Shown here piece after piece: positions 1,056 through 59,501 of a DNA stretch of 64,000 nucleotides. Below the pieces are notes generated by a model. It ran no database searches and was not told the DNA's origin. It saw nothing but the letters and a program-made list of their open reading frames with translations. The translations under genes were made by a program, and so were the position numbers. How positions within the stretch are numbered: position 1 is the stretch's first letter; each line of letters begins with the position of its first letter. Location: the IMG/VR virus record IMGVR_UViG_2609460125_000009; one strand, written 5' to 3'. Origin of the DNA: a virus. Lineage: Duplodnaviria; Heunggongvirae; Uroviricota; Caudoviricetes.

Positions 1056-1070
1056 AAAACAATTTGTTTT
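1056..1070. promoter_or_regulatory. palindromic operator-like site AAAACAA-T-TTGTTTT (motif family 1)
   Basis: Perfect inverted repeat; first occurrence marks the left edge of element-specific sequence. Confidence 0.5.
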
Positions 1071-1105
1071 CTATCTTTTGTTGATTGAGATAATAAGCCA
1101 CATAA

Positions 1106-1121
1106 GAAAACAAATTGTTTC
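1106..1121. promoter_or_regulatory. motif family 1 site GAAAACAAATTGTTTC
   Basis: Palindrome 13 bp upstream of the ATG at 1134, overlapping the RBS region. Confidence 0.55.
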
Positions 1122-1564: not shown

Positions 1565-2794
1565 ATGATAATTGAACAAATAACCCCTTGCTCGGAGCTT
1601 GGAATGACTGATACCGCTTTTTCAAAATCGTTACAAAAAGAAGTCGATCCTGAGCAGTACTTGGCGCTAAAGAATTTAGATGACAGCTCGGTTCATGCTA
1701 TTGCCCGTGACGATATCATCTGCCCCATTTGCAAAGTTGGAGGTGGTTCGTTCGTTAGAGCCACTAGGAATGGTGGCTATCACAAGAAGGCGCATTTCAG
1801 ATTTACCGGTGAAGATGGTCAAGGCCATCATCCATCATGTGATTTCTATGGAGATAGACTAACATCTGAGGTGAAGCAGCACCTTGTCTCATTCACAAAA
1901 GATCGAACAAAGTATTCGCAGGTAATACGAAAGCTGGTCTGTGCCGGCATACAGGAAGGGATATTTACTCAAGAAAAAATGTGGCAGATGAGGGAATGGT
2001 TCTTCAATAAGCGAAAGGATTCCACATTTGAAATATGGTTAGAAAGCGAGCATTTAGACTGGCTTTATTATATTAGTGGGTTACGTGATGCATATCTAGC
2101 ATGGACAACTCCTGATATTCTACCTTTCGCGCCCATTCAGGTTACTGTGCCTGGTTTTTCTTGGAAGCGTGCGATTGACAAAGAGGTGCTAAGAGTTCAC
2201 ATCAAGACTCTCCAGCAATTGCGTGAAATTTCAGTCTCACATAGAGACATTGCTGTAATCTTAGAACACATAAACAATAATCGTGACCGCACAATTCTCG
2301 ATCCATCGCATTTGGAGGACGAGATAAGTAAGACCTATAAGCTTACTAGTTTTGTGATGGGCAATTACATTGAGTTTCAGACAAAAACGGTTAGCGACAG
2401 AGCATACGGGGAAGCTAAGTTTCTGGCATTTGCAGCACTTTTGTTGTTCGTGTCAGATTGGGACCTCAACATTGCTATTGGTAAGTTTTCTAAGATTGCC
2501 AGAGTGAAGGAGGTTGATGACATGCTGGCTGGTAATTTCATTGGTCTTAATCCTTACTTCCGATACGACCTGGCTAATGCAGTGAAGAGATTGCAGGATA
2601 ACTGGCCGATTGAATACCAAGAGTTGGAGCATTGGAATGTTGAGAAATCCATGCGTGACGCATATGAAAAGTGGCGTGCGACAGAGCCTGAATTCGCTCC
2701 ACCCCTATTGCCAGACTTGTATATTGCCAAACATGAGAAAGAAGTCGCACAAGACGAGCAAGTCAGGCAGTGGATTAAGAACGGGGATGTTTGA
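1565..2794 (+). CDS. hypothetical protein with N-terminal zinc-ribbon-like Cys/His cluster
   Basis: 409-aa ORF; CPICK…HHPSCDFYG motif; start uncertain (ATG 1604 has a better RBS). Confidence 0.5.
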   Translation: MIIEQITPCSELGMTDTAFSKSLQKEVDPEQYLALKNLDDSSVHAIARDDIICPICKVGGGSFVRATRNGGYHKKAHFRFTGEDGQGHHPSCDFYGDRLTSEVKQHLVSFTKDRTKYSQVIRKLVCAGIQEGIFTQEKMWQMREWFFNKRKDSTFEIWLESEHLDWLYYISGLRDAYLAWTTPDILPFAPIQVTVPGFSWKRAIDKEVLRVHIKTLQQLREISVSHRDIAVILEHINNNRDRTILDPSHLEDEISKTYKLTSFVMGNYIEFQTKTVSDRAYGEAKFLAFAALLLFVSDWDLNIAIGKFSKIARVKEVDDMLAGNFIGLNPYFRYDLANAVKRLQDNWPIEYQELEHWNVEKSMRDAYEKWRATEPEFAPPLLPDLYIAKHEKEVAQDEQVRQWIKNGDV

Positions 2795-2849: not shown

Positions 2850-3720
2850 TATAAGAATCCGTTGATCGCCACTACTCTTCTTCCATACCTGCAATCACAC
2901 CTTTAAATATCAATAAGTTATAGTTGTTTATACAATCAAGAAAACAACTGAATAACAGATCAACGAAACATCAACGCTTTCACCCGATTTGGTCTAAAAA
3001 ATTGACGTATTCACACATCACTTCTTATACCCGTAATTCTACGCAGCAGACAGCGCCACAGCGTCCAATTTTCACCACAGACGACCCAACACACTACCAA
3101 CAAAAACACACGCTCAAAATCGCTCCCGTTGCGTTACACAACCATATAAACAACTTATTTTCAGGCATAACAAAACAACTAAATAACACACATGCCATTC
3201 CCCAAAACAACCAACCTCTTTATGGCAGGCTACCGAAAAGACCCACCTCTTCTCCCCAGGCTACCGGACAACCAACCTAACTTTCACAGGCAATCCGAAA
3301 ACATTCATACGCGCGATACCCACGACACGCCATTACCCAAACAGCGAAGAAACACCAGAATCACTGAAACCCCAACGAAGCCTGTAACCGCAAGGTTTCT
3401 CTCAATCCCAAAAGACACGAAACATAACAATCACGGGAAACGCCATTACCCAATACACGAATAACTACAAAAGCCTTTCACACACTCCAGACAAACAACT
3501 CAAACACAATAACGAAAGGAATCGCCCACCTGCCATTACTCCATACACGGAGAAGAACAATCACCAAAACGACGAGAACACCCCATAGAAGAACCACCGC
3601 AAAACGAACGAAACCACATACACCGACAGAGAGAACAACACACCCAATTCACAAACAGAAATAGTCGCCGCATAGAACGTTCTGGAAGGGGTGAGCATTA
3701 ACGCCTATAGAGAGGTTGAG
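2850..3720 (+). other. strongly A+C-skewed non-coding region with degenerate direct repeats
   Basis: G and T are scarce on the given strand; no ORF >=60 aa on the opposite strand; repeated GCCATTACCCAA and CAGGCTACCG units. Confidence 0.6.
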
Positions 3721-3787
3721 ACAGATAAAACACGAAGAAAACACAACATGTATAGCGAACAAGACAGGTATGTATAAGTGGGGAGGG

Positions 3788-3811
3788 AAGGAGGGGTGTC
3801 GCCTCCTTTTT
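3788..3811 (+). terminator. terminator-like hairpin
   Basis: AAGGAGG…CCTCCTT stem followed by TTTTT. Confidence 0.4.
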
Positions 3812-3894
3812 CGTATTTATTCAACTCCTGATTTTATCCCCCGTAACACCCCTACGGTCAGCCTTCGATCCATACAGGGAAAAGGTTGCATCCC

Positions 3895-4015
3895 GCTACA
3901 GAAACGGCTGGGTTGCCTTCGGGGAACGGCTGGAGGTTTTCAGGGAAACGGTCGAGTTGCCTGTGTGGATTTCGGGAAAAGGCTCGATGCCGGTTCAGGA
4001 ACGGTGGAGTACCGG
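3895..4015. repeat. iteron-like direct repeats (GGGAAACGGC-type, ~21 bp period)
   Basis: Five tandem units: AGAAACGGCTGG, GGGAACGGCTGG, GGGAAACGGTCG, GGGAAAAGGCTCG, AGGAACGGTGG. Confidence 0.6.
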
Positions 4016-4341
4016 TATAGCGAGAGGGAGAGTTGCGGCTATCCACCTGTAATGTGCGGGAAGAAGAGAGGCGCTCACGTGCAGGCGGACTAACTTACCG
4101 TTGGACTCCCTCTGAATGCCCAGTTACAGCGTAATTGTGCCAGACAGCCAACGGGTCACAATCGATTTCAGTAGGTTTTCGGGGAGATGATTATTCTGCC
4201 CACCAGCCACCTTCGGCCACTAAATCAGAATAATGTAAAAAGTGTTCTCGGTACTGAACCTGAAAACTCACTGCCAAAACCACATTCACCGGAATAAAAT
4301 CCTTTTTCGCCTGTGCGTTATTGCGATAATAACACCATCAA

Positions 4342-4356
4342 GAAAACATGTTGTTT
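4342..4356. promoter_or_regulatory. motif family 1 site GAAAACATGTTGTTT
   Basis: Palindrome downstream of a GATAAT -10-like hexamer and upstream of the 4369 ORF. Confidence 0.5.
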
Positions 4357-4368
4357 AAGGATTGCTTT

Positions 4369-4698
4369 ATGTTTGCAAATATCGACATCAACCAAATCAA
4401 GAAATTAACTCAAAAAGAGTTTGACCAGTTCTATGAGCTGGAAGGTTGGTCTTCCACTCTGATTAATTCAAGATGGGTGCTGGAGCTGATGACTCGTGAT
4501 GATGCACCTGCTTTGATGATCAGCGACCTGGGTGAAGATGCTGACTTTATGGATATGAGCGAATTTTGTGTGGACACATACAACCGCAGCCAGAAGTACT
4601 ACTTCACATGCGATAGCGAAAATGACGTGATTTCTAAGGTCTATCTTCACCTCGTCCAGCATTGGGACGTTCAGGAGTTTCTTGAGGTATTCGCGTAA
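4369..4698 (+). CDS. hypothetical early protein
   Basis: ORF with AAGGA RBS; ATG 4369 preferred because the ATG at 4348 lies inside the operator. Confidence 0.45.
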   Translation: MFANIDINQIKKLTQKEFDQFYELEGWSSTLINSRWVLELMTRDDAPALMISDLGEDADFMDMSEFCVDTYNRSQKYYFTCDSENDVISKVYLHLVQHWDVQEFLEVFA

Positions 4699-4707
4699 TC
4701 CCAACCA

Positions 4708-4733
4708 AAGCCAGCATTGCTGGCTTAATTTCT
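4708..4733 (+). terminator. rho-independent terminator-like hairpin
   Basis: AAGCCAGC…GCTGGCTT stem. Confidence 0.5.
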
Positions 4734-4825
4734 CTATAGCCGCAGGGAAGAACCTGCATATCGCTCATGCACCTGATCATTATGCTTTGTAGCCGTTTTC
4801 TTATTGGTATTATTTACGCCATTGA

Positions 4826-4840
4826 GAAAACAAGTTGTTT
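4826..4840. promoter_or_regulatory. motif family 1 site GAAAACAAGTTGTTT
   Basis: Palindrome immediately upstream of the RBS of the 4852 ORF. Confidence 0.5.
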
Positions 4841-4851
4841 ACGGAGTTGTG

Positions 4852-5163
4852 ATGAAAAAATCATTGGTTCTTGGTCTGGACAAAGACCAGAAGAGAAAAG
4901 AGAAGCCTGCGCTGGTTGCTCAATTAACTTTGCTGGACATCGTTGCCAATGGAACCTCTATTCGTCTGTTCCGTGAAACAGCGGTGTCTTTCGATAAAAA
5001 CACCTTTACTCGTTATGTAATGAATGTTCGTCGCCAGCGTGGAAAAGGCTGGATGGCATTTCAAAGAATGTGGCCGGAACATCAGCTCGAACTGGCTTTG
5101 ATGGAAGTTAACCGCGTGGCCCAGCAAGAAATTCAGAGAGCATCAGTGATGGCAATAGCCTGA
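4852..5163 (+). CDS. hypothetical early protein (basic)
   Basis: ORF with GGAG RBS. Confidence 0.45.
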   Translation: MKKSLVLGLDKDQKRKEKPALVAQLTLLDIVANGTSIRLFRETAVSFDKNTFTRYVMNVRRQRGKGWMAFQRMWPEHQLELALMEVNRVAQQEIQRASVMAIA

Positions 5164-5197
5164 TAATGTGCAAGTGGTAATTAGTCGACAGTACGAC

Positions 5198-5226
5198 AGC
5201 CCCGCCATCCTTACGGGGCTTTTTTG
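5198..5226 (+). terminator. rho-independent terminator
   Basis: AGCCCCG…CGGGGCT stem followed by TTTTTT. Confidence 0.7.
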
Positions 5227-5230
5227 TATT

Positions 5231-5246
5231 GTAAGTACATACTTAC
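5231..5246. promoter_or_regulatory. motif family 2 palindrome GTAAGTACATACTTAC
   Basis: Perfect inverted repeat ~45 bp upstream of the 5290 ORF. Confidence 0.45.
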
Positions 5247-5289
5247 GATCATAGAATATAAAAATAACCAATACACTACGGAGAGTGAA

Positions 5290-5685
5290 ATGACCGTTAA
5301 ACGCGAAAAACTGACAGTTGATGTTTACTATGCCTCTGAAACCGCCGAAGGTAAGAATGTGGCAAAAATCACCGTTGTTACGTACAACACCGAAACTGGT
5401 GCCGAAGTACAGGCCAGTACGATCGTGCGTAAAGGTGATGCCTCCGGCGGCGAGTACGCGACTCAATACCAGTCCATTCTCGATGCAACTGACCCGCTGC
5501 TGCTGAAAATCGAGAACTACTTCCGCCAGGTTGATGAAGAGGTGTTTGAAACCATGATGAATATGGTTAACACCGTATTCGCCTCCAGCCTGAACACCAG
5601 CACCACCTGGATTGGCCAGTACGGTCTGCGCATTACCTCTGGCATTCCTGCCGACACCTTAATCCCTGAAAGCGTATTCGCTTAA
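5290..5685 (+). CDS. hypothetical protein
   Basis: ORF with GGAGAG RBS. Confidence 0.45.
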   Translation: MTVKREKLTVDVYYASETAEGKNVAKITVVTYNTETGAEVQASTIVRKGDASGGEYATQYQSILDATDPLLLKIENYFRQVDEEVFETMMNMVNTVFASSLNTSTTWIGQYGLRITSGIPADTLIPESVFA

Positions 5686-5695
5686 TCCTCTTTAA

Positions 5696-5722
5696 ATGGC
5701 GCGTAAACCGCGCCATTTTATT
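5696..5722 (+). terminator. rho-independent terminator
   Basis: ATGGCGCG…CGCGCCAT stem followed by TTTTATT. Confidence 0.65.
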
Positions 5723-5731
5723 AAGCCCGAT

Positions 5732-5746
5732 AACAATTTGTTTTCT
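5732..5746. promoter_or_regulatory. motif family 1 site AACAATTTGTTTTC
   Basis: Palindrome upstream of the 5803 ORF. Confidence 0.45.
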
Positions 5747-5802
5747 GCCTTATCTGATTTGTGAAAATGATTTCACTGAAGCAACTTAATAAGGAAACCA
5801 TC

Positions 5803-6177
5803 ATGGGACTTGATATCTATATCGAGACACAGCCTAAAAACGATCTGAATAACGAGGCATCCAGAAAGCGGGTTGCTTACTTCCGTAAGTTCAATGCGCT
5901 CGTTGGGTGGATGGAGCGCAACGTAGGTGAAGTCGAAAATTGTGAGCTTTTAGAATTAACGATGAATGACATTTGTTTTCTGAAGGCTCATTTGATGCAC
6001 ATAAACGAAAGTAATTGCGAAGAGTACTTGCCTACCCGGGAAGGTTTTTTCTTCGGCAGTCAGGAGTACGATGAAGGTTACTGGCATGATGTGGGGGAGT
6101 TGAAAGAGCTTGTGGAAGATCTGATTAAGAACCACGACTTTCACAATAACAGACTGACCTTCTGCGCCTGGTGGTAA
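5803..6177 (+). CDS. hypothetical early protein
   Basis: ORF with AAGGAAACC RBS; the longer frame from 5761 would start at GTG. Confidence 0.45.
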   Translation: MGLDIYIETQPKNDLNNEASRKRVAYFRKFNALVGWMERNVGEVENCELLELTMNDICFLKAHLMHINESNCEEYLPTREGFFFGSQEYDEGYWHDVGELKELVEDLIKNHDFHNNRLTFCAWW

Positions 6178-6179
6178 AT

Positions 6180-6323
6180 ATGGGCGATTTCAAGAAACGC
6201 CTGAAGGAGAGAGCCGAGATGGTCAGAAAGCGAAACGCCTCTTCTGTCATCAGATACGCAAGGCAGTTTAGTCGCAACAACAAATCAGTTGAGGAAAAGA
6301 TCCTTAGCGTAATCGGGCGATAA
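6180..6323 (+). CDS. small basic hypothetical protein (47 aa)
   Basis: Short ORF starting 2 nt after the stop of the previous gene; not in the supplied track because <60 aa. Confidence 0.3.
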   Translation: MGDFKKRLKERAEMVRKRNASSVIRYARQFSRNNKSVEEKILSVIGR

Positions 6324-6330
6324 TTATTAA

Positions 6331-6350
6331 GGCCACCAGCATTGGTGGTC
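6331..6350 (+). terminator. terminator-like hairpin GGCCACCAGCATTGGTGGTC
   Basis: Stem-loop without a strong T-run; near-identical copy at 6800. Confidence 0.4.
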
Positions 6351-6478
6351 TTAAATGACTTTTAATAACCGAAGGTTAGTTTGAAACCTGGCTATCAACT
6401 TCCAGAACCTTTCTTGTGTATTCAGCCTGTATTAACTTCTTTTATGCCTTATCTACACTGCGATAATTACACCAACAA

Positions 6479-6493
6479 GAAAACAACATGTTT
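6479..6493. promoter_or_regulatory. motif family 1 site GAAAACAACATGTTT
   Basis: Preceded by the conserved CGATAATTACACCAACAA promoter-like block. Confidence 0.5.
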
Positions 6494-6506
6494 ACGCAGT
6501 GAGGAT

Positions 6507-6794
6507 ATGCTCATGACTGATTTCACCATTACCCCTAAAGCACAAAATGTATTCCTTGAATCATGGCTGGACTTGCCGGAAACAGAACAGCAAGAAATGG
6601 ATCATGTGGATTATGACGAGCAGGTAAGCACGCGATTCTTCCACTTTGAGGGATGCGTTTACGACATTGCCGACTTCATGCGAGATGACCGCTTCCCTGA
6701 ATGGCACGCAAGCTATCCACTAAACGCCTTTGCCATGCTGATGATCCGTGTGGATGATTCAGGGGATACCATCGACATCGGTCTGCTCCACTAA
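6507..6794 (+). CDS. hypothetical early protein (acidic)
   Basis: ORF with GAGGAT RBS; start at 6507 or 6513. Confidence 0.45.
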   Translation: MLMTDFTITPKAQNVFLESWLDLPETEQQEMDHVDYDEQVSTRFFHFEGCVYDIADFMRDDRFPEWHASYPLNAFAMLMIRVDDSGDTIDIGLLH

Positions 6795-6799
6795 AGATT

Positions 6800-6823
6800 A
6801 AGGCCACCAATGCTGGTGGCCTT
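6800..6823 (+). terminator. terminator-like hairpin AAGGCCACCAATGCTGGTGGCCTT
   Basis: Perfect stem; near-identical to the 6331 hairpin. Confidence 0.45.
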
Positions 6824-6963
6824 AAATGACCATCCTGTTTCCCGCAGGCTAAAAACACCAACCTCTTACCTCCAGGCAACCGACAAACCCACCTGTTCCC
6901 GTCCGGCTACCGCAACTTTCCACTTTGACGCCTTATTCGTACAACGATAATTAACACCAACAA

Positions 6964-6977
6964 GAAAACAATTTGTT
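6964..6977. promoter_or_regulatory. motif family 1 site GAAAACAATTTGTT
   Basis: Preceded by the CGATAATTAACACCAACAA block. Confidence 0.5.
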
Positions 6978-6998
6978 ATTTACGATAAGGAATTAATC

Positions 6999-7481
6999 AT
7001 GAATTTTATCGCTACTGTAAACGCACCCGCACATGGCAATATCGCTGTAACGTTCTCTGACATTGAAAAACGAGTACTTGGTGCATGGCGCGACAATGAG
7101 ACGGTAGAACTGTCAGCACAAGAAAAATGCATTATTGCACGCGACATCATTGGCAATCGTCGTTACTCGCGGGTATTTGAGAAAGCATATGTGGTAAATT
7201 CTGGATTCGGAACGTTCGTCTTTCCGGTGCGCTCCGGGCGATTCTGCCAGTCCAAGCTGATTGAGTTCGCTACGCAGATTTCTGTCTGGATTAAAACTCA
7301 ATCGTCGTTCAAATTTTCCGACGATGAAGCAGTATCGCAGGGGATGCGGATCGCCAACAATGCGATTAAATGCAAAAACATTACGTATACCGCTGGCGTT
7401 GATACATGGAAACTGTTTTGCGCTAACTTTATGCTGAATGTATACGCAAGCAACCGCATCCACATCCTTGATGGCGTGTAA
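6999..7481 (+). CDS. hypothetical protein
   Basis: 160-aa ORF with AAGGA RBS. Confidence 0.5.
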   Translation: MNFIATVNAPAHGNIAVTFSDIEKRVLGAWRDNETVELSAQEKCIIARDIIGNRRYSRVFEKAYVVNSGFGTFVFPVRSGRFCQSKLIEFATQISVWIKTQSSFKFSDDEAVSQGMRIANNAIKCKNITYTAGVDTWKLFCANFMLNVYASNRIHILDGV

Positions 7482-7494
7482 CTGAGAAGAGGGC

Positions 7495-7620
7495 CAGAAA
7501 CGGCCCTTTCTCTACAGCCACCAGCTGCCGCAGGGAAATTTTCAGAAACGGCGAGGAACGTATTCATGAGCCGACGGGAAACGGCCAGGATTTTTTCGGG
7601 AAACGGCTGCATTCGCCTTT
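7495..7620. repeat. second iteron-like array (AGAAACGGCC / GGGAAACGGC units)
   Basis: Four or more direct repeats of the same core as the 3895-4015 array. Confidence 0.55.
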
Positions 7621-7725
7621 ATATAGAAAAAACATCGGGAAGCTGGTGGAATCCAACCAGCGGTTGTCGGACAGGTGAGCGGGGAAAATCATGATGACTT
7701 TCGTCGCCTGAGACATCCAGATTTC

Positions 7726-7780
7726 TTTCGTAGCGTAATCACATATGTGATTAAGTGGTGTGATTATGTGAAAAATCACG
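7726..7780. promoter_or_regulatory. cluster of perfect palindromes (TAATCACATATGTGATTA; ATTATGTG-N12-CACATAAT)
   Basis: Inverted repeats in a convergent intergenic region. Confidence 0.4.
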
Positions 7781-8071
7781 CGCACATAATACGAGAGCGG
7801 ATACGGAACAAAACAAAATGCCGATCCGCGCCGACAATTAAACGCGGATCACATAGCAAGAATAAAAGCCAATGATTAACCATACACCATAACGCAATAT
7901 AACGCGATTTAAGCGCGTTAATGCGCTAAGTAATGGGTATGTACTGGTAAGGATATAAAAGCGCGTCTATGGCGTTATTTTGGCGCTTATTTTTATGTTG
8001 TTGGTGTGAGTCAAAGACAATAAAAAACGCGCTAATGATGGCGCGTTATGGTGGGAGTATTGGAAACGAAA

Positions 8072-8093
8072 AAAGCGCCCATAGTGGGCGCTC
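8072..8093 (-). terminator. hairpin AGCGCCCA-TAG-TGGGCGCT downstream of the 8098 gene
   Basis: Perfect 8-bp stem; identical copy at 8568. Confidence 0.45.
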
Positions 8094-8097
8094 GATT

Positions 8098-8328
8098 TTA
8101 TTTATGTAAACTGATTTCAAATCCCATTTCTACAAACGCTTTTAACATTAAAAATATATCAGCGTCATTCACGTCTGCTTTTTTTCGCTCCTGGTCGCTC
8201 AATAAGTCAATTTTGCGCGTCGTTTCATCTATAAGCTCGACTGCGCGCCCAGCGTAACCAGCGATCCCAGCGATGCGATTAACATAATATTCGTTATGGA
8301 CGTTAACGCCAGCGATAAGAACAAACAT
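8098..8328 (-). CDS. hypothetical protein (76 aa)
   Basis: ORF in an AT-rich operon. Confidence 0.4.
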   Translation of the reverse strand: MFVLIAGVNVHNEYYVNRIAGIAGYAGRAVELIDETTRKIDLLSDQERKKADVNDADIFLMLKAFVEMGFEISLHK

Positions 8329-8348
8329 GATTAAGCTCCTTAAAAAAA

Positions 8349-8552
8349 TTAAATAGAATTTTGAAGTTTTCCGATTAATGCGCTTAAACGTAAGTATTCA
8401 CGTTTGCGCTTGCAATCTCGCTTGCTGTTAAGCAAATCAGAAAACGTAAAATTTAATTGGTCGCGTTGCGCGATTAAATCATCGATTAATTCCAGTTTAT
8501 AAGCGCGATACTTTGCGCGATATTCCGCGCGGATCTTGTCATAGCTGACCAT
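8349..8552 (-). CDS. hypothetical basic protein (67 aa)
   Basis: Start moved to the internal ATG with an AAAGGAG RBS; the longer track ORF would run through the 8568 hairpin. Confidence 0.4.
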   Translation of the reverse strand: MVSYDKIRAEYRAKYRAYKLELIDDLIAQRDQLNFTFSDLLNSKRDCKRKREYLRLSALIGKLQNSI

Positions 8553-9846: not shown

Positions 9847-10371
9847 TCAAAAAGGCAAAATTCGTTCAACCCAATCGAACAAAACAACTATTTTTCTACC
9901 GTTCTCGACACGTAGTGTAACCTGACAAGCATCTGCGCCTGCTGACACCCCCTCAATTTCACGGCCATCCGCCATGTACACCCTTATAGATTTGTTTGCT
10001 TTGTAGGCTTGGTTGCAAATTGCAAAAAAATCGCGGCGTGATGGCCGATTATCGACATAATCAGGGTGAACTGTTAATCGACCTTTGAAATCGTGAGCGA
10101 TACTGTCAACCACACCTGATTCAATTGTACTAATGCGTTCAAGTGGGAGCCTTATACGATTTTCTTTGTCAAAAGGGGCTGGGCAAAGGTCAACTTTGTT
10201 GCGAGATGGCATGAGGCCATAAACGTACATGCAAAACGCCTGACCATCTTCGAGAGTGACCCTTACAGGAATTTGTTCTCTGCGCCAGAACATCAGTAGT
10301 TTTTCAACGTTAGTGTAATCTCGCGGCAAGAGTTCAGCTTGGATACCGTAGGTAATATCTTTGGTTGTCAT
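9847..10371 (-). CDS. hypothetical protein
   Basis: Start moved to the internal ATG (MTTKDITYG…) to avoid overlap with the upstream lipoprotein gene. Confidence 0.4.
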   Translation of the reverse strand: MTTKDITYGIQAELLPRDYTNVEKLLMFWRREQIPVRVTLEDGQAFCMYVYGLMPSRNKVDLCPAPFDKENRIRLPLERISTIESGVVDSIAHDFKGRLTVHPDYVDNRPSRRDFFAICNQAYKANKSIRVYMADGREIEGVSAGADACQVTLRVENGRKIVVLFDWVERILPF

Positions 10372-10866: not shown

Positions 10867-11145
10867 TTATTTTAATCTGCTTAATAGCGTTTCGAGATCT
10901 TCCTTTGTCATATTAGAGTTCTCATAGATACGCATGATTTTCTCACGAGTCTTAGCGGAAGCCCCGACAGAAGATATAACCTTGTCAAAGTCGGCCATTG
11001 TCAATTGTTCCAGAATGGTATTAATGACTTCAGCCTTAGACATTTTGATATTTTTTTCTTTTAGTTTCACTTGAAACTTTCCAAGTTTGTCATTGGCCTT
11101 ATCAGACAATGCTACCTGACAGTAAGTTGTTTTCTTTTCACTCAT
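10867..11145 (-). CDS. hypothetical small protein (92 aa)
   Basis: ORF immediately downstream of the helicase gene. Confidence 0.4.
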   Translation of the reverse strand: MSEKKTTYCQVALSDKANDKLGKFQVKLKEKNIKMSKAEVINTILEQLTMADFDKVISSVGASAKTREKIMRIYENSNMTKEDLETLLSRLK

Positions 11146-12752: not shown

Positions 12753-12772
12753 ATAAGTAAGTGATTACTTAG
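12753..12772. promoter_or_regulatory. motif family 2 palindrome ATAAGTAAGTGATTACTTAG in a divergent promoter region
   Basis: Inverted repeat between the helicase operon (-) and the ParB-like operon (+). Confidence 0.45.
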
Positions 12773-12789
12773 TGGATTGTAGCAATAAA

Positions 12790-13470
12790 ATGGATGTAAA
12801 AATCACGATTTTGCAGGTTGATGTTGCCAACCTTCGCCCGAATACCTGGAACACCAATTCGGTTGGTGCGCAGAATTTTGAAAAACTGAAAGGTTCTATC
12901 GAAAAATTGGGCTTTTTTAAGCCAATTTTGGCTCGTGAACTTGAAGATGGATTTTTTGAAATCCTCGGCGGCGAACATCGCTGGCGTGCTGCTATTGAGC
13001 AAGGAATTTCAACGGTTCCGGTGCTTTCTGTGGGCAAAATTAGCGATGTCGTAGCTAAACAGATGTCACTGGTGGACAACGAGCGATACGGTGAAGACGA
13101 CCAAATCGCATTGCAACGCTTCATTGAAGAAATTCAGTCAGAACTTGACTATCAACTGTCTGAAATCGCCCCGTATGACGACGAAATCTCGATGGTTTTA
13201 GCAAAAGAGGCGGCAATCGACCTTGAAGCACTGGAGGCGTTGTCTCGTGGTAGTGATGAGCCTGTCGATACCGACAAACGAGAGAAAACCGAACGTGTGG
13301 GTGCGGAACATCAGACCATGCGCTTCAAAGTAACTTTCGATGCGTCAGATCGTGTTGCAGAAACCATAAAAAACATCATCAAAGAGCAGGCTATTAACAC
13401 CGGTAATGAAATGGAGAACGCTGGTGAGGCTCTGGTGTGGCTGGTCGACTACTACAAGGAGCGTATGTAA
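12790..13470 (+). CDS. ParB/Srx-fold nuclease-like domain protein 1
   Basis: ParB N-terminal-like motif (…FEILGGEHRWRAA…); start could be 12772. Confidence 0.6.
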   Translation: MDVKITILQVDVANLRPNTWNTNSVGAQNFEKLKGSIEKLGFFKPILARELEDGFFEILGGEHRWRAAIEQGISTVPVLSVGKISDVVAKQMSLVDNERYGEDDQIALQRFIEEIQSELDYQLSEIAPYDDEISMVLAKEAAIDLEALEALSRGSDEPVDTDKREKTERVGAEHQTMRFKVTFDASDRVAETIKNIIKEQAINTGNEMENAGEALVWLVDYYKERM

Positions 13471-14138
13471 TGACCAAAAAGTTTGAAATCGTATATCGCG
13501 ACCCGGCAGATCTTATTCCCTATGAGATGAATGCCAAAAAGCATGATGAACAGCAGATCCGAGATCTGGCCGCAGCCATTAAAAAGCGCGGATTTGACCA
13601 GCCAATTACGGTCGATAAGAACGACGTAATTATTACTGGCCACGGCCGCCGTGAGGCTGCAATTTTTGCTGGACTTGAGCGCGTACCGGTTATTGTTCGC
13701 GATGATCTCAGTGATGACGAGGTTCGTGCGAAGCGCCTTGAAGATAACCGACTTGCCAGCATTGATTACGATGCAATTAAGCTACAGAAAGAGCTTGAGT
13801 CGCTTGTTCTGGACGATATCGAGGTTTTCGGCTTTGAAGAGCGTGAGTTGAATGTTCTCGTTGGCAGCATGACAGAAGAAATGGACACCGACTCGCTAGT
13901 TATCGATCTTGGCGAAGAAACTAAACGACAGAAGGATGAACACACCGAGATCAGTCGTGAAGTTGCAGCGGAAGAAGTACGTGTTGTCGACGTATTGGGC
14001 TTTAAAACGCTTCCTGCTGGCTCTGCCATTGTTGTTGGTGATTTGCTTGCCCACATGGAAGAAATGACGGGAGAAAGCGGGGTAGACGCATTTGTGGCAT
14101 ATGCGGAGAAGATCTCTTCCGGGGAGATGGCTGCATGA
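13470..14138 (+). CDS. ParB/Srx-fold nuclease-like domain protein 2
   Basis: ParB-like motif (…VIITGHGRREAA…); start overlaps the upstream stop (TAATG). Confidence 0.6.
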   Translation: MTKKFEIVYRDPADLIPYEMNAKKHDEQQIRDLAAAIKKRGFDQPITVDKNDVIITGHGRREAAIFAGLERVPVIVRDDLSDDEVRAKRLEDNRLASIDYDAIKLQKELESLVLDDIEVFGFEERELNVLVGSMTEEMDTDSLVIDLGEETKRQKDEHTEISREVAAEEVRVVDVLGFKTLPAGSAIVVGDLLAHMEEMTGESGVDAFVAYAEKISSGEMAA

Positions 14139-38503: not shown

Positions 38504-41500
38504 ATGTGGTACAGGGAAGGTACTATCACATTTACACAGGGCAGCAATACTCTGGTTGGGGCAGGGACAGCCTGGAACGTAACAGCTAATGGTGTGTTGC
38601 CGGGGATGATCGTCATTGGCCCCGACAATAAGCTGTATGAGATCAAGCGCGTAACCAGTGATACGAACATTGTTCTCTCAGAACCTTATACCGGCGAAAC
38701 TCAGTCTGAAGTTCCGTGCCGAATCATTACGACCTATGAAGGCGACTTAACACAGTTTAGCGCGCGCTTTACAGCACTAATGTCGCGTATGTCGGCTGAT
38801 TCCAAGTCCATGCGCAGTTGGTTGACTGCTCTGGATGAGGTGACAATCGAGCGTGAAGACGGTACAGAAGTGACCGTTAAGCCGCTAATGCAGATCGTCA
38901 ACGAGCACAACGAAAACGTTGAGTGGTATAAAAATAACACTGACGCGATTGATGCTGCTGGCGACAAAGCTCGTGAGGCGGCGGCCAGTGCTGCCGCAGC
39001 AGCAGAAAGCGCCAATATCGCTGGAGAAAAAGCCTCTCAAGCGTCTCAAAGTGCATCCGCTGCAGAGTCCTCAAAAAGCGCGGCGGCCACAAGTGCCGGT
39101 GCCGCGAAAACGTCTGAAACGAATGCTGCAGCGTCACAAAAATCTGCAGCCACTTCTGCATCCACCGCGACCACGAAGGCGTCAGAAGCTGCCACCTCAG
39201 CCCGGGATGCGGCGGCCTCAAAAGAGGCAGCGAAATCATCAGAAACGAGCGCAGCCTCGAGCGCCAGTAATGCCGCTTCCTCGGCAACGGCGGCAGGAAA
39301 TTCCGCGAAGGCGGCAAAAACGTCCGAGACGAACGCCAGGTCTTCTGAAACGGCAGCGGGACAGAGCGCCTCGGCTGCGGCAGGCTCAAAAACAGCGGCT
39401 GCGTCGTCTGCCAGTGCCGCGTCAACAAGTGCCGGGCAGGCCTCAGCCAGTGCCACCGCCGCCGGAAAATCGGCAGAAAGTGCCGCATCGTCTGCTTCAA
39501 CAGCCACAACGAAGGCTGGCGAAGCCACTGAACAGGCCAGCGCAGCAGCGAGGTCTGCTTCCGCAGCGAAGACATCCGAAACGAACGCGAAAGCGTCGGA
39601 AACCCGTGCAGAATCCTCAAAAACGGCAGCCGCATCGTCCGCCAGTTCGGCAGCGTCATCGGCATCATCTGCGTCTGCTTCAAAAGATGAGGCGACCAGA
39701 CAGGCGTCAGCAGCGAAGGGCAGCGCCACGACGGCATCCACGAAAGCAACAGAGGCGGCAGGCAGTGCGACGGCAGCATCTCAGAGCAAAACTGCTGCTG
39801 AATCCGCTGCGACCCGTGCGGAAGCTGCTGCTGATCGTGCTGAAGAGATTGCCGGTGCAGTTGCGATGGAAGACGCAAGCCTTACAACTAAAGGTGTTGT
39901 GAAACTTAGCAGTGCTGTCGACAGCACCAGTGAATCGCTGGCCGCAACGCCAAAAGCAGTTAAAGTAGTCAATGACAATGCGAACAGCAGGGTGCCATCT
40001 AACCGAAAAATTAACGGGAAAGCACTGACTGCGGATATCACATTAACGCCGAAAGATATTGGTACTTTAAATTCAATAACGATGTCTTTCTCTGGCGGGG
40101 CCGGGTGGTTCAAACTGGCTACTGTTACAATGCCACAAGCGAGTTCCATCGTTTACATCGCATTGATTGGTGGCGCTGGTTACAACGTCGGCTCCCCACA
40201 TCAGGCAGGCATTTCAGAACTGGTTCTACGAGCAGGCAATGGAAACCCCAAAGGGATTACAGGTGCTTTGTGGAAGCGTACAGCTGTCGGATTAACGAAT
40301 TTCGCCTGGATCAACACATCCGGCGATACATATGATATTTACGTTGAGATTGGCAATTATGCGACTCGTGTAAATATCCATTGGGATTGTACTGCAAATG
40401 CGACAGTTTCTATTTATACATCGCCAACATATTCAGCTAGTAAGCCTTCCAGCGTTACCGATGGTGTTGTTTATACGATGTATAGCACACATCAGAAACC
40501 GACGCCGTTAGATATTGGAGCACTGCCAACAACCGGAGGAACAGTTTCAGGTCCGTTGTCTGTTACTGGTGGGATCACCGGAACATTAAATGGTAATGCA
40601 AGTACAGCAACGAAATTGCAGACGGCAAGATCTATCGGTGGAGTTGGTTTCGACGGTTCTGCAAATATCAACCTTCCAGGTGTAAATACTACGGGTAATC
40701 AGAACACCACTGGTAATGCTGCAACTGCTACAAAACTTCAGACGGCAAGAACTATCGGCGGCGTGAGCTTTGATGGTACTGCGAATATTAATTTGCCAGG
40801 TGTTAATACGACTGGTAATCAGAATACAACGGGCAACGCGGCTACTGCTACGAAGTTGCAGACTGCGCGTACTATCAATGGGGTGTCGTTTGACGGCTCG
40901 GCAAATATTTCCTTGTCGCCAGCAAATATAGGTTGCCCGGCATCTCCTACTGGTTGGTTAACTACAGGAAGTAATGGCGGAGCAATAACAACAGCACAGT
41001 TAGTGACGTTATTGCAAAATAATGGAGCATTTAACACAAAGTCATGGATTGCTCGATGTGCTTGGGCCTATGCCAATAGTGCAACCATACCAAATAGTGA
41101 AACTGGTTGTGGCGTTATTCCATTGGCAGGAGCTGTTATAGAGGTATTTAATAACGGTAGTAGCTCAAACAATTATACGATCCGTATAACAACGGCCACA
41201 ACGACGAGTGTCTCTGGTGCTCTCACTAATGCGGAGTTTATCTATGTATTTAATGGCACAGATTATTCTCCGGGATGGCGAAGAGTATATAACACGAAAA
41301 ACAAACCAACAGCCTCTGATGTCGGTGCATTACCTCTTACCGGTGGTACATTATCTGGAGGTTTGACATCTTCTGGCGAGATCATTTCAAAATATGCAAA
41401 TGGTTTCCGCATTGCTTACGGTAGCTTTGGGTTCTTTATCCGTAATGATGGATCGAACACATATTTCATGCTAACAGCATCAGGAGACACATTAGGTTCA

Positions 41501-45357: not shown

Positions 45358-45879
45358 TTATTCTTCGAACAATTTTTCGATAGATTTTGTAGGATAGAAC
45401 AAAGAACGCTCGTTGTTACCAACCAGCTGGATAAAGCCTAAACTTTTATAAAACGCCTTGGCTTTGTCATTTAACGCCTCAACGAAAAGTCCATGAATGC
45501 CTACAGCAAGAGATGCATTGTACACAACGCGCATTGCATGTGTTACAAGCATTGAGCCAAATCCTTGACCTTGAAGGGACTTGTCCAAAGCCAGCCTACC
45601 CAAAGTAACACTTGGAACATTCCGATAAGGAACCTTCTTTTGTTTGCTTCTTGAAGGTAAGGACTCCTTTTCAAAACAACTACCTGACAAAGTGTAATAT
45701 CCTAACACTTTTGGCCTTTCTTCTTGAGTGCAAAGCACATAAGCACGAAGAATTTTTCCCTCATGCTGCCTTTTTAAGTGGTTGGCTAAAAAGGCGTTTA
45801 GTGACTCTTCGCCGCAATCAAAACCGTTTAGATCATAATCTTTCTCTCCAGAGAAAATCTCTATCGTTGTATTGCTCAC
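45358..45879 (-). CDS. GNAT-family acetyltransferase toxin (TacT/KacT/AtaT-like)
   Basis: GNAT motif QGQGFGSMLV; directly downstream of an RHH antitoxin-like gene. Confidence 0.7.
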   Translation of the reverse strand: MSNTTIEIFSGEKDYDLNGFDCGEESLNAFLANHLKRQHEGKILRAYVLCTQEERPKVLGYYTLSGSCFEKESLPSRSKQKKVPYRNVPSVTLGRLALDKSLQGQGFGSMLVTHAMRVVYNASLAVGIHGLFVEALNDKAKAFYKSLGFIQLVGNNERSLFYPTKSIEKLFEE

Positions 45880-45886
45880 GAGTAAA

Positions 45887-46156
45887 CTACTCCATGCTTT
45901 TCAGACGATCAGCAGCTCGTTTCAGCTTGTCGTTCGGTGCCGGAGGATTGCTTATAGCGTCCATAACCAGATTCCAGGATTCTTCATTCAGAACTAGTCT
46001 ACGGTGTTGCTCTATAACTTTCACGGCACGTTCAGATGCACTGCTAACCATAAACTGAGTAATGCTCTGGTTAGACATTGCGGCAGCTTCCTCGATGATG
46101 CTTTTATCGTCATCGGTTAATCTCAAATCGATGCGCTGCTTTTTTAGTGCTGACAT
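45887..46156 (-). CDS. RHH antitoxin (DUF1778-like)
   Basis: Small ORF with AGGAGG RBS; 8-bp gap to the toxin gene. Confidence 0.6.
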   Translation of the reverse strand: MSALKKQRIDLRLTDDDKSIIEEAAAMSNQSITQFMVSSASERAVKVIEQHRRLVLNEESWNLVMDAISNPPAPNDKLKRAADRLKSME

Positions 46157-46474: not shown

Positions 46475-47143
46475 ATGACCAAGATCTTTGTGGTTGGCGG
46501 CACAAAGGGCGGGCCTGGCAAATCCACCCTTGCCCAGCAAATTGCCGTTTGCCTTAAAGTCAAAAAGAAGAAGAAGGTTTATATCACTGATATAGATATT
46601 CAGCGCACGACAACAAGCTGGTGTGAAGACCGTCGACAGAACGAAGACCTTGAGCTGATTCCTTTTGCATACGTTCAGGATGACATCATTAAGCACCTAA
46701 AATCGCTTCAGGGTAGAGCTGAGTATGTAGTGGTAGATGCTGGTGGCTTCGACTCCGAAATTCAGCGACAAGCGATGCTGATGGCTGACGTTATCATTAT
46801 CCCGCTGCGTCCTAAGCGTCGTGATTTGAAATCTTTACGTGACATCGATCCTATTATCGACAATGTTCGCAATGTAAACGATAAAGTGAAGGTCCGCGCG
46901 GTCATGAACCAGTGCCCGGCTTTGCCATCACAAGTGTCTCGCATTCTGGCGGCTAAAGAGATTGTTGAGACGTTTGGAATCGAGTCTGCGCCAGTCAATC
47001 TGTATAACCGCAACGTCTATGATGATGCGGAAGAGTCTGGTCGTTCTATCTTTGAAATGACCGGTAGCGAGCGCGACAAAAAGGCGGAAGCCGAGTTTGA
47101 AGAATTTGTAGATTATCTGTTGAGTCTGGAGGAAGAAGAATAA
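46475..47143 (+). CDS. ParA-family partition ATPase
   Basis: Deviant Walker A GGTKGGPGKST. Confidence 0.8.
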   Translation: MTKIFVVGGTKGGPGKSTLAQQIAVCLKVKKKKKVYITDIDIQRTTTSWCEDRRQNEDLELIPFAYVQDDIIKHLKSLQGRAEYVVVDAGGFDSEIQRQAMLMADVIIIPLRPKRRDLKSLRDIDPIIDNVRNVNDKVKVRAVMNQCPALPSQVSRILAAKEIVETFGIESAPVNLYNRNVYDDAEESGRSIFEMTGSERDKKAEAEFEEFVDYLLSLEEEE

Positions 47144-47502
47144 TGTCCATGAAAATGGGTGACCTAGCAAAGCGCAAAGAGCCTGATGCACCGGCTAAGA
47201 ACACAACTCCTTTGCGCCAACCAGTCAGACCACAGGGACGCCCGACTCGTGGCAAAGAGAAAATTAAAAGCCGCACAATGTCACTGGAGGACGAATACTT
47301 CGAACTGCTGGAGATGATGAAGTTCATCCCTCGCTTCGAGAAGTTCACTCGTTCTGACGTGATTCGAGCAGCCATTTTCCATCTGGCAGAGAAGTCACCG
47401 CAGGAAATCGAGGACATCGTGAAATTGAATGAGGCGATCACCGCTGCCGATGTCACGATGCGTACCGATGAAATCAAACGAGAGTTGATGAAGAAAGGTT
47501 AA
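47143..47502 (+). CDS. partition adaptor / centromere-binding protein (ParG-like RHH, putative)
   Basis: Small ORF translationally coupled to ParA (TAATG); basic disordered N-terminus. Confidence 0.5.
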   Translation: MSMKMGDLAKRKEPDAPAKNTTPLRQPVRPQGRPTRGKEKIKSRTMSLEDEYFELLEMMKFIPRFEKFTRSDVIRAAIFHLAEKSPQEIEDIVKLNEAITAADVTMRTDEIKRELMKKG

Positions 47503-56294: not shown

Positions 56295-56369
56295 GATGGT
56301 GTAGCTCAGCGGTAGAGCAGTTGGCTGTTAACCAACTGGTCGGTGGTTCGAATCCACCCACCATCGCCA
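56295..56369 (+). tRNA. tRNA-Asn (anticodon GTT)
   Basis: Hand-folded cloverleaf: acceptor GATGGTG/CACCATC, anticodon loop CTGTTAA, T-loop TTCGAAT, 3' CCA encoded. Confidence 0.8.
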
Positions 56370-56374
56370 ATTTA

Positions 56375-56461
56375 GGGGAGTTAGTCCGTAGAGGTAGCGG
56401 GGTAGACTGTAAATCTACTGTCATTGCGACTCGGGTGGTTCGACTCCATCACTCCCCACCA
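56375..56461 (+). tRNA. tRNA-Tyr (anticodon GTA), long variable arm
   Basis: Acceptor GGGGAGT/ACTCCCC, anticodon stem-loop GTAGA-CTGTAAA-TCTAC, long variable arm; D-arm pairing is atypical. Confidence 0.6.
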
Positions 56462-56465
56462 AATT

Positions 56466-56541
56466 GCCGGTTTAGCTCAGTTGGTAGAGCGCCTGCCTTG
56501 TAAGCAGGATGTCAGCGGTTCGATCCCGTTAACCGGCACCA
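56466..56541 (+). tRNA. tRNA-Thr (anticodon TGT)
   Basis: Acceptor GCCGGTT/AACCGGC, D-arm GCTC-AGTTGGTA-GAGC, anticodon loop CTTGTAA, T-loop TTCGATC. Confidence 0.8.
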
Positions 56542-59120: not shown

Positions 59121-59501
59121 AGACTTTATGGCCTCAACAACCTTTTGTGATGCGCCTTTCTCTTTACCGAATCGCTCGTTATATGCAGCAAGAACCTGTT
59201 TTTCGTCCTCGTTAAGAGGAGCAGTGCCTTCTTTGTATAAAAATGCTGCGAGTTCGGGTTGGCGTTCTTCCAGCACCATCATCATAAGACGACTTGGCTC
59301 AATACCCAGTGCCAGCGCCAGCGGACGAACCTTATCGATAGGCAAAGGAATTTTGCCGCTTTTAATTAAAGAAAGGTTGTTGGCGTTTTTATACCCAATT
59401 GTTTTGGCTATCTGGGCCTGGCTCATAGGTGAGGATTCAATCAACCCTGCGATAAAAGCAGCGTAGCGACTTTCTATAAATTCAATCTTGTTATCAGACA
59501 T
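59115..59501 (-). CDS. XRE-family HTH transcriptional repressor
   Basis: HTH (…SQAQIAKTIGYKNANNLSLIKSG…); divergent from a small plus-strand ORF. Confidence 0.65.
   Translation of the reverse strand: MSDNKIEFIESRYAAFIAGLIESSPMSQAQIAKTIGYKNANNLSLIKSGKIPLPIDKVRPLALALGIEPSRLMMMVLEERQPELAAFLYKEGTAPLNEDEKQVLAAYNERFGKEKGASQKVVEAIKSL

Follow-up and report, generated by a model that had tools for sequence, protein, structure and literature searches.

What are the seven small genes that lie side by side at positions 4300-7490 of this element, how did they come together and what switches them? The window, i.e. the whole stretch of 64,000 nucleotides that was analysed, belongs to an SSU5/pHCM2-type phage-plasmid of E. 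coli: its flanking genes agree with those of SSU5-like elements (about 100-112 kb), and the region matches Cyrano/pLF82 with 99.1% identity over 100% of its length and is covered to at least 80% in 189-205 plasmids. Clinical E. coli, Klebsiella, Salmonella and Yersinia pestis often carry phage-plasmids of the SSU5/pHCM2/pMT1 type, the array is present in about 800 PLSDB plasmids, and the lysogeny control of these elements is essentially unstudied. In SSU5 and Cyrano the array products are annotated solely as hypothetical proteins, and the literature searched holds no description of the regulatory architecture of the array. The region is probably a variable accessory-gene array made of six autonomous transcription units.

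Six units and their control elements

The seven genes (4369-7481) are all on the plus strand and encode products of 47-160 aa, the size range given in a preliminary description of this DNA. They form units A, B, C, D+E, F and G (Table 1), which all have a predicted sigma-70-type promoter and a ribosome-binding site and end in a stable terminator hairpin. The idea of self-contained cassettes therefore stands, but there are six of them and not seven, since E lacks both a promoter and an operator and is co-transcribed with D. Likewise, the family-1 operator that had been attributed to every unit was found in five of the six: no copy exists at cassette C, which has GTAAGTAcaTACTTAC instead, while the D copy covers the -35 element in inverted orientation.

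A generic sigma-70 scan of positions 3500-8500 returned three sites versus 8.9 expected and detected the C promoter alone. The other promoters were accepted because their -35, -10, operator and ribosome-binding site are conserved across genera, not for consensus strength. As previously noted, promoter blocks are common to several units (repeat families D1-D4 and D8), and families D1-D4, D6 and D8 are promoter/stem-loop motifs between small ORFs that are conserved across elements. The six hairpins, which the preliminary description had also recognised, are stable (-12.4 to -20.1 kcal/mol, z -3.0 to -5.3, with 0 of 200 shuffles folding equally well), three of them (after A, D/E and F) lacking a good T-tract. 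The near-identical pair among them, 28 nt each, in which the second is the reverse complement of the first, has no further copy in the 64 kb. A chance origin of operator and hairpins is ruled out by this absence elsewhere and by the 12 operator copies in the window (versus 0.67 expected). Rfam models run over the window found three tRNAs and no other RNA family.

Table 1. Features of the array and of candidate regulatory loci (positions in the window)
Feature	Position	Strand	Details
ORF A	4369..4698	+	109 aa, pI 4.2; dN/dS 0.07; phrog_7645 (function unknown)
ORF A, alternative annotated start	4348		in-frame ATG within operator
Hairpin of A (terminator)	4708..4726	+	8-bp stem, -12.4 kcal/mol, weak T-tract
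Cassette B control region	4786..4851	+	conserved in 9 elements
B promoter	4786-4791; 4808-4813		-35 TTTGTA; -10 TATTAT
B operator	4825-4840		AGA+AAACAAGTTGTTT; ribosome-binding site GGAG
ORF B	4852..5163	+	103 aa, basic, pI 10.5; dN/dS 0.07; phrog_5125 (function unknown)
Intrinsic terminator of B	5198..5226	+	7-bp GC stem, then TTTTTT
Cassette C control region	5229..5289	+	promoter TTGTAA-17-TAGAAT
C family-2 palindrome	5231-5246		GTAAGTAcaTACTTAC, between -35 and -10
ORF C	5290..5685	+	131 aa, pI 4.5; dN/dS 0.13-0.36; phrog_2473 (function unknown)
Intrinsic terminator of C	5694..5718	+	10-bp stem, -15.2 kcal/mol, then TTTATT
Cassette D/E control region	5731..5802	+	shared block GCCTTATCT
D/E operator	5731-5746		inverted family-1, TAACAATTTGTTT+TCT, over -35
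D/E extended -10	5760-5768		TGTGAAAAT; ribosome-binding site AAGGA 5791-5795
ORF D	5803..6177	+	124 aa, pI 4.8; dN/dS 0.12
ORF E (predicted)	6180..6323	+	47 aa, pI 11.3; begins 2 nt after D stop
Hairpin 1	6327..6354	+	TTAAGGCCACCAGCATTGGTGGTCTTAA; ends D/E; left boundary of F cassette
Cassette F control region	6434..6512	+	shared block GCCTTATCT
F promoter	6440-6445; 6462-6467		-35 TTTTAT; -10 GATAAT
F operator	6478-6493		AGA+AAACAACATGTTT; ribosome-binding site GAGGA 6501-6505
ORF F	6513..6794	+	93 aa, pI 4.1; dN/dS 0.07-0.14; AF2 pLDDT 67
Hairpin 2	6798..6825	+	reverse complement of hairpin 1; ends F; right boundary of F cassette
Cassette G control region	6924..6998	+	conserved in 11 elements
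G promoter	6924-6929; 6946-6951		-35 TTTGAC; -10 GATAAT
G operator	6963-6978		AGA+AAACAATTTGTTA; ribosome-binding site AAGGA 6987-6991
ORF G	6999..7481	+	160 aa, pI 9.2; dN/dS 0.10
Terminator of G	7484..7512	+	stem GAGAAGAGGGCC/GGCCCTTTCTC, -18.2 kcal/mol
FljA homologue	9847..10371	-	
ParB-like protein gene	12772..14138		
Family-1 site in parA promoter	46427		
Gene after parA	47143..47502		119 aa

Shared blocks are the junctions of cassette gain and loss

Comparing cassette content across related elements, as the preliminary description had proposed, revealed wide differences among about 800 plasmids, in which G has 804 records (including Y. pestis pMT1) and is the conserved anchor of the array, followed by B (745), F (653), D (342) and A (229); C was found in 930 plasmids. 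A is limited to Escherichia/Shigella elements and F, frequently misnamed 'ABC transporter', to SSU5-like ones. In relatives, the slot directly left of the array is filled with defence-type cargo that varies (DUF262, GIY-YIG, DUF4145, type I restriction-modification).

Whole cassettes are present or absent, in the order (Z)-A-B-C-(D,E)-F-G, which is colinear in all 14 elements examined. The junctions (3 of 3 examined) fall inside shared blocks, i.e. the operator/5'UTR for Z, GCCTTATCT for D/E and the 28-nt hairpin for F, whose loss leaves a chimeric hairpin. The repeated promoter/operator blocks and hairpins are thus recombination junctions for the gain and loss of whole cassettes, which bears out part of the cassette shuffling suggested earlier: the shared blocks are indeed the joints, but what varies is presence or absence and not order. 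Mechanistically, the blocks act as short homologies, and recombination between them removes or adds a cassette and leaves its neighbours undisturbed.

Escherichia phage Cyrano (CYRAN_105-111) has the same genes, operators and order and is 99% identical, while Salmonella phage SSU5 (SSU5_111-117) has a homologous array that agrees in the shared genes, their operators and order, but is devoid of A, D and E, has Z-type cassettes and carries a reverse-strand gene between F and G.

Silence in the lysogen and possible roles of the products

RNA-seq of the LF82 (Cyrano) lysogen gives normalised reads of 12.8 for A, 12.2 for B, 17 for C, 5.7 for D, 6.7 for F and 25.5 for G, where most Cyrano genes have 5-15 and the putative repressor has 96 (PMC9928086 Table S1). 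Six of the seven genes are therefore at or near background, the sole exception being E (6-fold above), and RNA-seq shows that the array is silent in the plasmid prophage, E excepted. Macrophage RNA-seq was rejected as a sign of 'early' induction, because constitutive plasmid genes increase equally.

The products are under purifying selection (dN/dS 0.07-0.36), and strong acidity (pI 4.1-4.8) is seen in four of them, namely A, C, D and F. Scans of A-G against Pfam, PHROGs, NCBIfam and PADLOC gave no functional assignment, and PDB sequence searches (A, F and G) and a profile search (D) no match. The structure-based search that the preliminary description had recommended also came back empty: the products searched had no fold match to any characterised family, including known anti-defence and defence families, and this applies to G as well, for which the AF2 model is confident. 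D comes from an uncharacterised family of very large size, with 2403 cluster representatives and the motif MGLD..Y(W/F)RK.N..LPT..GFFFGS.EYD..AWW; in a Bacillales genome this family is represented by a gene that stands alone on the chromosome. Most plausibly, the products serve accessory functions in the lytic cycle or in host interaction.

The narrower proposal, in which the cassette products are early proteins for anti-defence or host takeover, is possible but doubtful. Small and often acidic products, silence in the lysogen, the variability of A, D/E, F and Z among close relatives and the defence-type cargo next door are all what it would predict, but B, C and G, far from being variable, occur in nearly all relatives, the D family extends to a solitary gene in Bacillales, and none of the products resembles any known family or fold. 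In any case, the array provides a set of seven small orphan proteins for screening, among them D with its very large family.

The family-1 operator, its candidate binders and known parallels

The claim that the cassettes are individually regulated is contradicted by the distribution of their operator, since five units share AGAAAACAAnTTGTTT, a 13-bp palindrome that is also at the terminase, helicase, parA, nrdB and cobT promoters, so that the array is co-regulated with much of the genome. There are about 18 family-1 sites per genome (roughly 108 kb), and the sequence is identical in elements of Escherichia, Klebsiella, Salmonella, Enterobacter, Citrobacter and Yersinia and in SSU5, where protein identity goes down to 50-80%. 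Fourteen of the 18 sites are gene-proximal (10-45 nt before the start codon) and all of these are in sense orientation; the remaining four are inverted and upstream of -35. Relative to the promoter, the operator sits about 10 nt after -10 (roughly +7 to +22) or inverted over -35. Paired operators, at the DUF5983 promoter and the ancestral F promoter, have a fixed 51-bp centre-to-centre distance and mirrored AGA flanks, which argues for cooperative DNA binding. The operator lies in front of replication genes and of the late terminase operon alike; parA has one, yet is moderately expressed in the lysogen.

These features suggest a scheme in which a dimeric DNA-binding repressor on the family-1 operator would block RNA polymerase, and the use of one operator at so many promoters would switch the array together with replication, nucleotide-metabolism and packaging genes. 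Unit C would be governed instead by the palindrome found on the promoter of the CI-like repressor itself, to which the version in relatives (TGTAAGnnCTTACC) is identical. The CI-like repressor is unlikely to be the family-1 binder, because its own promoter has a different conserved palindrome, the one that recurs at cassette C; its divergence across genera (56-66%) did not discriminate for or against such binding.

An RNA-level element would also fit an operator that is asymmetric (AGA flank) and always in sense orientation in 5'UTRs. It is conceivable, although unlikely, that family-1 acts mainly on RNA, as a 5'UTR operator through which the FljA homologue would block translation and destabilise mRNAs, just as FljA does with the fliC mRNA. 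The gene is only 2.4 kb away and encodes a full-length FljA-family protein (PF03614, E 1e-82, residues 5-171, with a weak Hfq-like match), which is found in 13 of 13 relatives and, among phages, in SSU5-like ones only; the collection contains no FljA-carrying phage beyond the SSU5 group that could serve as a control. Moreover, the Salmonella fliC 5'UTR has ATAACATTGGTTAT, loosely like the G and D variants (AAAACAATTTGTTAT and ATAACAATTTGTT), but the half-site spacing is one base off the fliC dyad. The orientation of the gene-proximal sites favours RNA, whereas the four inverted sites would be outside the mRNA, and the 51-bp pairing and palindromic core indicate DNA binding.

Partition proteins are known to silence promoters (KorB on RK2, SopB on N15), and family-1 could represent dispersed centromere-like sites at which the protein encoded after ParA, or the ParB-like protein, binds and silences nearby promoters. 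One site is in the parA promoter, the activity of the parA operon in the lysogen is what autoregulation would produce, the window encodes two ParB_N proteins, and the KorB OB sites make a similar pattern, with a 13-bp palindrome in about a dozen dispersed copies. We nevertheless consider this quite unlikely, because parA has a single site and not an array and the 119-aa protein is devoid of a recognisable DNA-binding domain or PDB relative. The likeness to RK2 KorB OB and N15 sopC sites lies in a palindrome of about 13 bp with at least a dozen dispersed copies at promoters, a partition protein being only a candidate binder here.

Taken together, and tentatively, family-1 could define an undescribed SSU5-type regulon under a second factor (possibly an FljA-family or a partition protein), with the cassettes as its fast-evolving arm and a source of new inhibitors of host defence or other host functions, a composite that we regard as improbable. 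If true, it would be run by this second factor and not by the CI-like repressor, and an FljA-family protein would act on DNA and/or mRNA leaders. What is gained in either case is a regulatory map with two operator families, some 18 family-1 promoters and a few candidate regulators.

How does this arrangement compare with known systems? That the units are classical morons, i.e. lysogenic-conversion genes active in a repressed prophage, is very improbable: the promoter-gene-terminator layout, the presence/absence pattern and the expression of E agree with it, but in the LF82 lysogen all genes except E stay at or close to the background level, and the array shares its operator with lytic genes. 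The moron concept (Hendrix/Juhala, lambdoid phages) describes a promoter, a gene and a terminator inserted between core genes; autonomous units absent from some relatives are seen here too, but the expression in the repressed prophage that defines morons is restricted to E. The operators of the P1 C1 repressor are dispersed over a phage-plasmid genome, and one operator is similarly scattered here over many plasmid-prophage promoters, in some cases paired and inverted. However, the C1 operator is 17 bp and asymmetric (ATTGCTCTAATAAATTT), unrelated to the 13-bp palindrome plus AGA, and no C1 homologue was recognised among the proteins scanned (part of the ORFs).

For turnover, the closest parallel comes from the hyperplastic regions of T4-type phages, whose regulatory cassettes are termed PeSL, for promoter-early/stem-loop (Arbiol et al., 2010, PMC2839356; Comeau et al., 2014, PMC4122927). 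Both systems have runs of small orphan ORFs (non-essential in the PeSL description) separated by repeated promoter/stem-loop motifs, indel junctions are inside these motifs, and recombination between them explains the indels among close relatives. PeSLs are however single compact motifs of virulent T4-like myoviruses, with circular excision products, whereas here promoter and hairpin are 30-190 nt apart, the repeated block includes a predicted repressor operator, gene order is fixed, no mini-circles are known and the cassettes reside in a temperate phage-plasmid of siphovirus type. The exact junctions show that repeated regulatory blocks drive the turnover of genes in this temperate phage-plasmid, a part that PeSLs play in T4-type phages.

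Organisation of the array in a phage-plasmid

Along its whole length, the region 4300-7490 shares 99.1% identity with Escherichia phage Cyrano (pLF82). It also matches 722-776 plasmids, from Escherichia, Klebsiella, Enterobacter, Yersinia, Salmonella, Citrobacter and Cronobacter; E. coli chromosomes gave no match. Its surroundings are the same in annotated relatives, running from humD, apbC and metG through small hypothetical genes to UvsW-like helicase and ParB-like genes. Together, this identity, the plasmid matches and the common surroundings identify the window, as judged from its sequence, as an SSU5/pHCM2-type phage-plasmid.

The array consists of seven + strand ORFs in six units, each closed by a hairpin (-12.4 to -20.1 kcal/mol, z -3.0 to -5.3) for which 0/200 shuffles gave an equally good fold. 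T-tracts follow the hairpins of B, C and G and are absent after those of A, D/E and F. A generic sigma-70 scan, with an overall site count below chance, detected the promoter of C alone, and the other unit promoters are therefore weak matches. That these are nevertheless real is argued by conservation, since upstream alignments of B, F and G (8-11 elements, up to six genera) keep a -35, a -10 (GATAAT or TATTAT), the block ACCAACAAGAAAACAAnTTGTTT and a ribosome-binding site, with no conservation farther upstream. Open frames are kept in orthologues, and dN/dS values are between 0.07 and 0.36 for every ORF but E; copies of E are 96-100% identical among relatives, too alike for dN/dS. The preliminary description, which gave each of six or seven small ORFs its own promoter, operator and hairpin, is accurate for seven ORFs and six hairpins but has to be amended for E, which shares the unit of D, and for C, which lacks the operator of the other units (family 1).

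Coordinates of the array and associated features, with normalised LB values in lysogen LF82 (PMC9928086) and numbers of plasmids with a match
Feature	Position	Strand	Size	LB value	Plasmids	Remarks
DUF5983 promoter	1057-1120					two family-1 operators
DUF5983 gene	1125-1433
Variable slot	1565-2794					metG/DUF5983 to CA-rich stretch
CA-rich stretch	2900-3740		840 nt
Terminator	3785-3811
Repeats, left	3877, 3899, 3921, 3943, 3974 (3877-3990)
ORF A	4369-4698	+	109 aa	12.8	229	own unit; Escherichia/Shigella only
ORF B	4852-5163	+	103 aa	12.2	745	own unit
ORF C	5290-5685	+	131 aa	17.0	930	own unit
ORF D	5803-6177	+	124 aa	5.7	342	unit common to D and E
ORF E	6180-6323	+	47 aa	57.9		start 2 nt past stop of D
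Hairpin 1	6327-6354		28 nt			ends D/E
ORF F	6513-6794	+	93 aa	6.7	653	own unit; in Escherichia only 106/~220
Hairpin 2	6798-6825		28 nt			ends F
ORF G	6999-7481	+	160 aa	25.5	804	own unit; pMT1 among them
Repeats, right	7543, 7576, 7598 (7543-7610)
FljA homologue	9847-10371	-
Candidate binder	10867-11145		92 aa
GNAT toxin, TacA-like antitoxin	45358-46156	-
Small ParA ATPase (region)	46475-47502	+
tRNA cluster	56295-56538
Immunity-like region	59118-59760
CI-like HTH gene	59118-59501	-
CI-like promoter palindrome	59533-59546
Divergent gene	59753-59962		70 aa
CYRAN_43	40268-40822 (Cyrano record)	-

Several features lie to either side. The variable slot carries different cargo among relatives – a 409-aa unknown protein in the window, DUF262 in Klebsiella, a GIY-YIG nuclease in Salmonella and DUF4145 in another E. 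coli element (loci L002, L004, L006 and L007) – with a type I restriction-modification system near the equivalent slot of pAPSLC-111K, and looks like a defence-type hotspot. The CA-rich stretch (70% A+C on the + strand; A 0.40, C 0.30, G 0.14, T 0.17), which has no genes in any annotated relative and keeps its composition in 11/12 relatives (pMT1 excepted), runs from just past a family-1-like half site to a strong terminator. One inverted family-1 site (3148) lies inside it, and the stretch may be a long non-coding RNA. Iteron-like repeats of GGGAAACGGC (22-nt period) bracket the array in the same orientation, are kept in relatives including pMT1 and could be an origin or partition site.

Two operator families and their candidate binders

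Family 1 has a palindromic core of 13 bp that can be written AAACAA-N-TTGTTT but is described better by AACA-N3-TGTT, next to which, on one side, an AGA is always present. The pattern occurs 12 times in the window (0.67 expected) and at 18 sites once the remainder of the Cyrano genome is added. Fourteen of the 18 lie 10-45 nt 5' of a start codon and ~10 nt past a -10-like hexamer, the AGA always promoter-side. Among the genes that follow such sites are DUF5983, A, B, F, G, the small terminase subunit (two sites), parA, a DnaB-type helicase, cobT, nrdB and tciA. Four are inverted, over or upstream of the -35 (D, DUF5983, CYRAN_93 and one within the CA-rich non-coding stretch). The proposal that array genes are 'individually regulated' is not supported by this distribution, the same operator being common to units A, B, D, F and G and to terminase, parA, helicase, cobT and nrdB.

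Pairs of family-1 sites around a single promoter have a spacing of exactly 51 bp and inward-facing AGA flanks, as at DUF5983 (five elements), the F promoter of an E. albertii element without D/E (L005) and a Klebsiella promoter following C (L006, L012); the F promoters of Salmonella, Enterobacter and Yersinia also have an inverted upstream copy. The DUF5983 promoter, where two perfect mirrored operators bracket the -35 and -10, is the clearest example. Such fixed pairing would point to cooperative DNA binding. The operator sequence does not change from genus to genus or in SSU5 itself, with adjacent proteins down to 50-80% identity.

The unit of C, which has no family-1 site, carries the palindrome GTAAGTAcaTACTTAC between -35 and -10 (TGTAAG(nn)CTTACC in relatives). 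The same palindrome (GGTAAGyACTTACC) sits directly past the -10 (TAATAT) of a CI-like HTH gene, as the perfect GGTAAGTGCTTACC in the window, and is kept in E. coli, Klebsiella and pMT1, where the CI-like protein is only 56-65% identical. On the simplest reading, the CI-like protein would bind this second family, at C and at its own promoter, in which case family 1 belongs to a different protein. The CI-like gene is part of an immunity-like region, where it shares its sequence in part with the end of a gene for a tyrosine recombinase and where a divergent gene also lies.

Sequence searches of solved structures were no help in naming the family-1 binder. A possible lead is a full-length FljA homologue (PF03614, E 1e-82, with a weak Hfq-like match too), found in every relative and, among phages, in SSU5-like ones only. 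FljA is a post-transcriptional repressor of phase-1 flagellin. It binds the fliC mRNA leader (PMC4122451), in which a dyad, ATAACATTGGTTAT, loosely resembles the family-1 operator. The homologue is characteristic of SSU5-like phages; its identity to the Cyrano copy is only 78%, versus 99% for the array. Other candidates are the partition proteins, one family-1 site lying within the parA promoter, and a 92-aa protein expressed in the lysogen. A small ParA ATPase gene, with a family-1 operator in its promoter, is adjoined by GNAT toxin and TacA-like antitoxin genes; the 119-aa product of the next gene is without recognisable domain.

Expression and products

In public RNA-seq of the Cyrano lysogen LF82 (normalised LB values; PMC9928086, Table S1, where CYRAN_105-111 are A-G), most Cyrano genes have values of 5-15, the putative repressor 96 and parA 50. 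Apart from E, array values are near those of most genes, which makes the array essentially silent in the prophage. A rise in macrophage samples was rejected as array induction because constitutive plasmid genes rise as much, and the 'early' timing given to the array in the preliminary description found no support. E is the sole array gene above background (about 6-fold), with co-transcribed D at background, a difference that points to an internal promoter, a stable fragment of RNA or an antisense/small RNA. By far the element's highest signal, ~700-fold over background, is that of CYRAN_43, a 'hypothetical protein' near the tRNA cluster, where indels separate the window from Cyrano; a regulatory RNA is one possibility for this locus.

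The seven proteins have no Pfam or PADLOC match and their PHROG matches are all of 'unknown function'; an anti-defence role therefore stays a guess, prompted by size, charge, variability and the neighbouring slot with defence-type cargo in relatives. A, C, D and F are strongly acidic (pI 4.1-4.8), and B, E and G basic. The F and G families are limited to SSU5-like elements, and the predicted model of F is poor. D is one of a very large family of orphan proteins (2403 cluster representatives, at least ~8000 clusters at 90% identity) without relatives in Pfam or PDB; one member is in a phage-like contig amid tiny ORFs, and another is encoded on its own in a Bacillales chromosome. F, a small acidic protein, is named 'ABC transporter' in many database records; this was rejected for want of sequence support, and the name so appears to be a propagated mis-annotation.

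Cassette gain and loss

In 14/14 elements the genes are arranged as (Z)-A-B-C-(D,E)-F-G, Z being an extra cassette of relatives left of A, and there is so no permutation. Presence is variable (plasmid counts, by tblastn against PLSDB, are in the table): other elements have extra cassettes, such as Z-type ORFs of ~70 aa and further ORFs in pSAN1-1735, and in SSU5 and a Citrobacter plasmid F and G are separated by a gene on the reverse strand.

Three indels (F, D/E and Z) were resolved to base level. Elements without F have one chimeric hairpin, its left side from hairpin 1 and its right flank from hairpin 2; F is therefore a 471-bp cassette between two 28-nt hairpin copies, which occur nowhere else in the window and, as first noticed, are near-identical. 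In E. albertii without D/E, the crossover is within the common block GCCTTATCT, and the loss recreates a dual-operator F promoter as in Salmonella, Enterobacter, Yersinia and Klebsiella. In the window, which is without Z, the control region of A is the Z promoter joined to the A 5'UTR, with the junction within the operator.

The preliminary description was largely right: the 'cassette shuffling' that it envisaged finds support, at the level of sequence comparison, as gain and loss at common regulatory blocks, but not as permutation. A literature search found no description of this array architecture. The same behaviour, indels at repeated regulatory blocks, is that of the promoter-early/stem-loop (PeSL) cassettes of T4-type phages (PMC2839356, PMC4122927).
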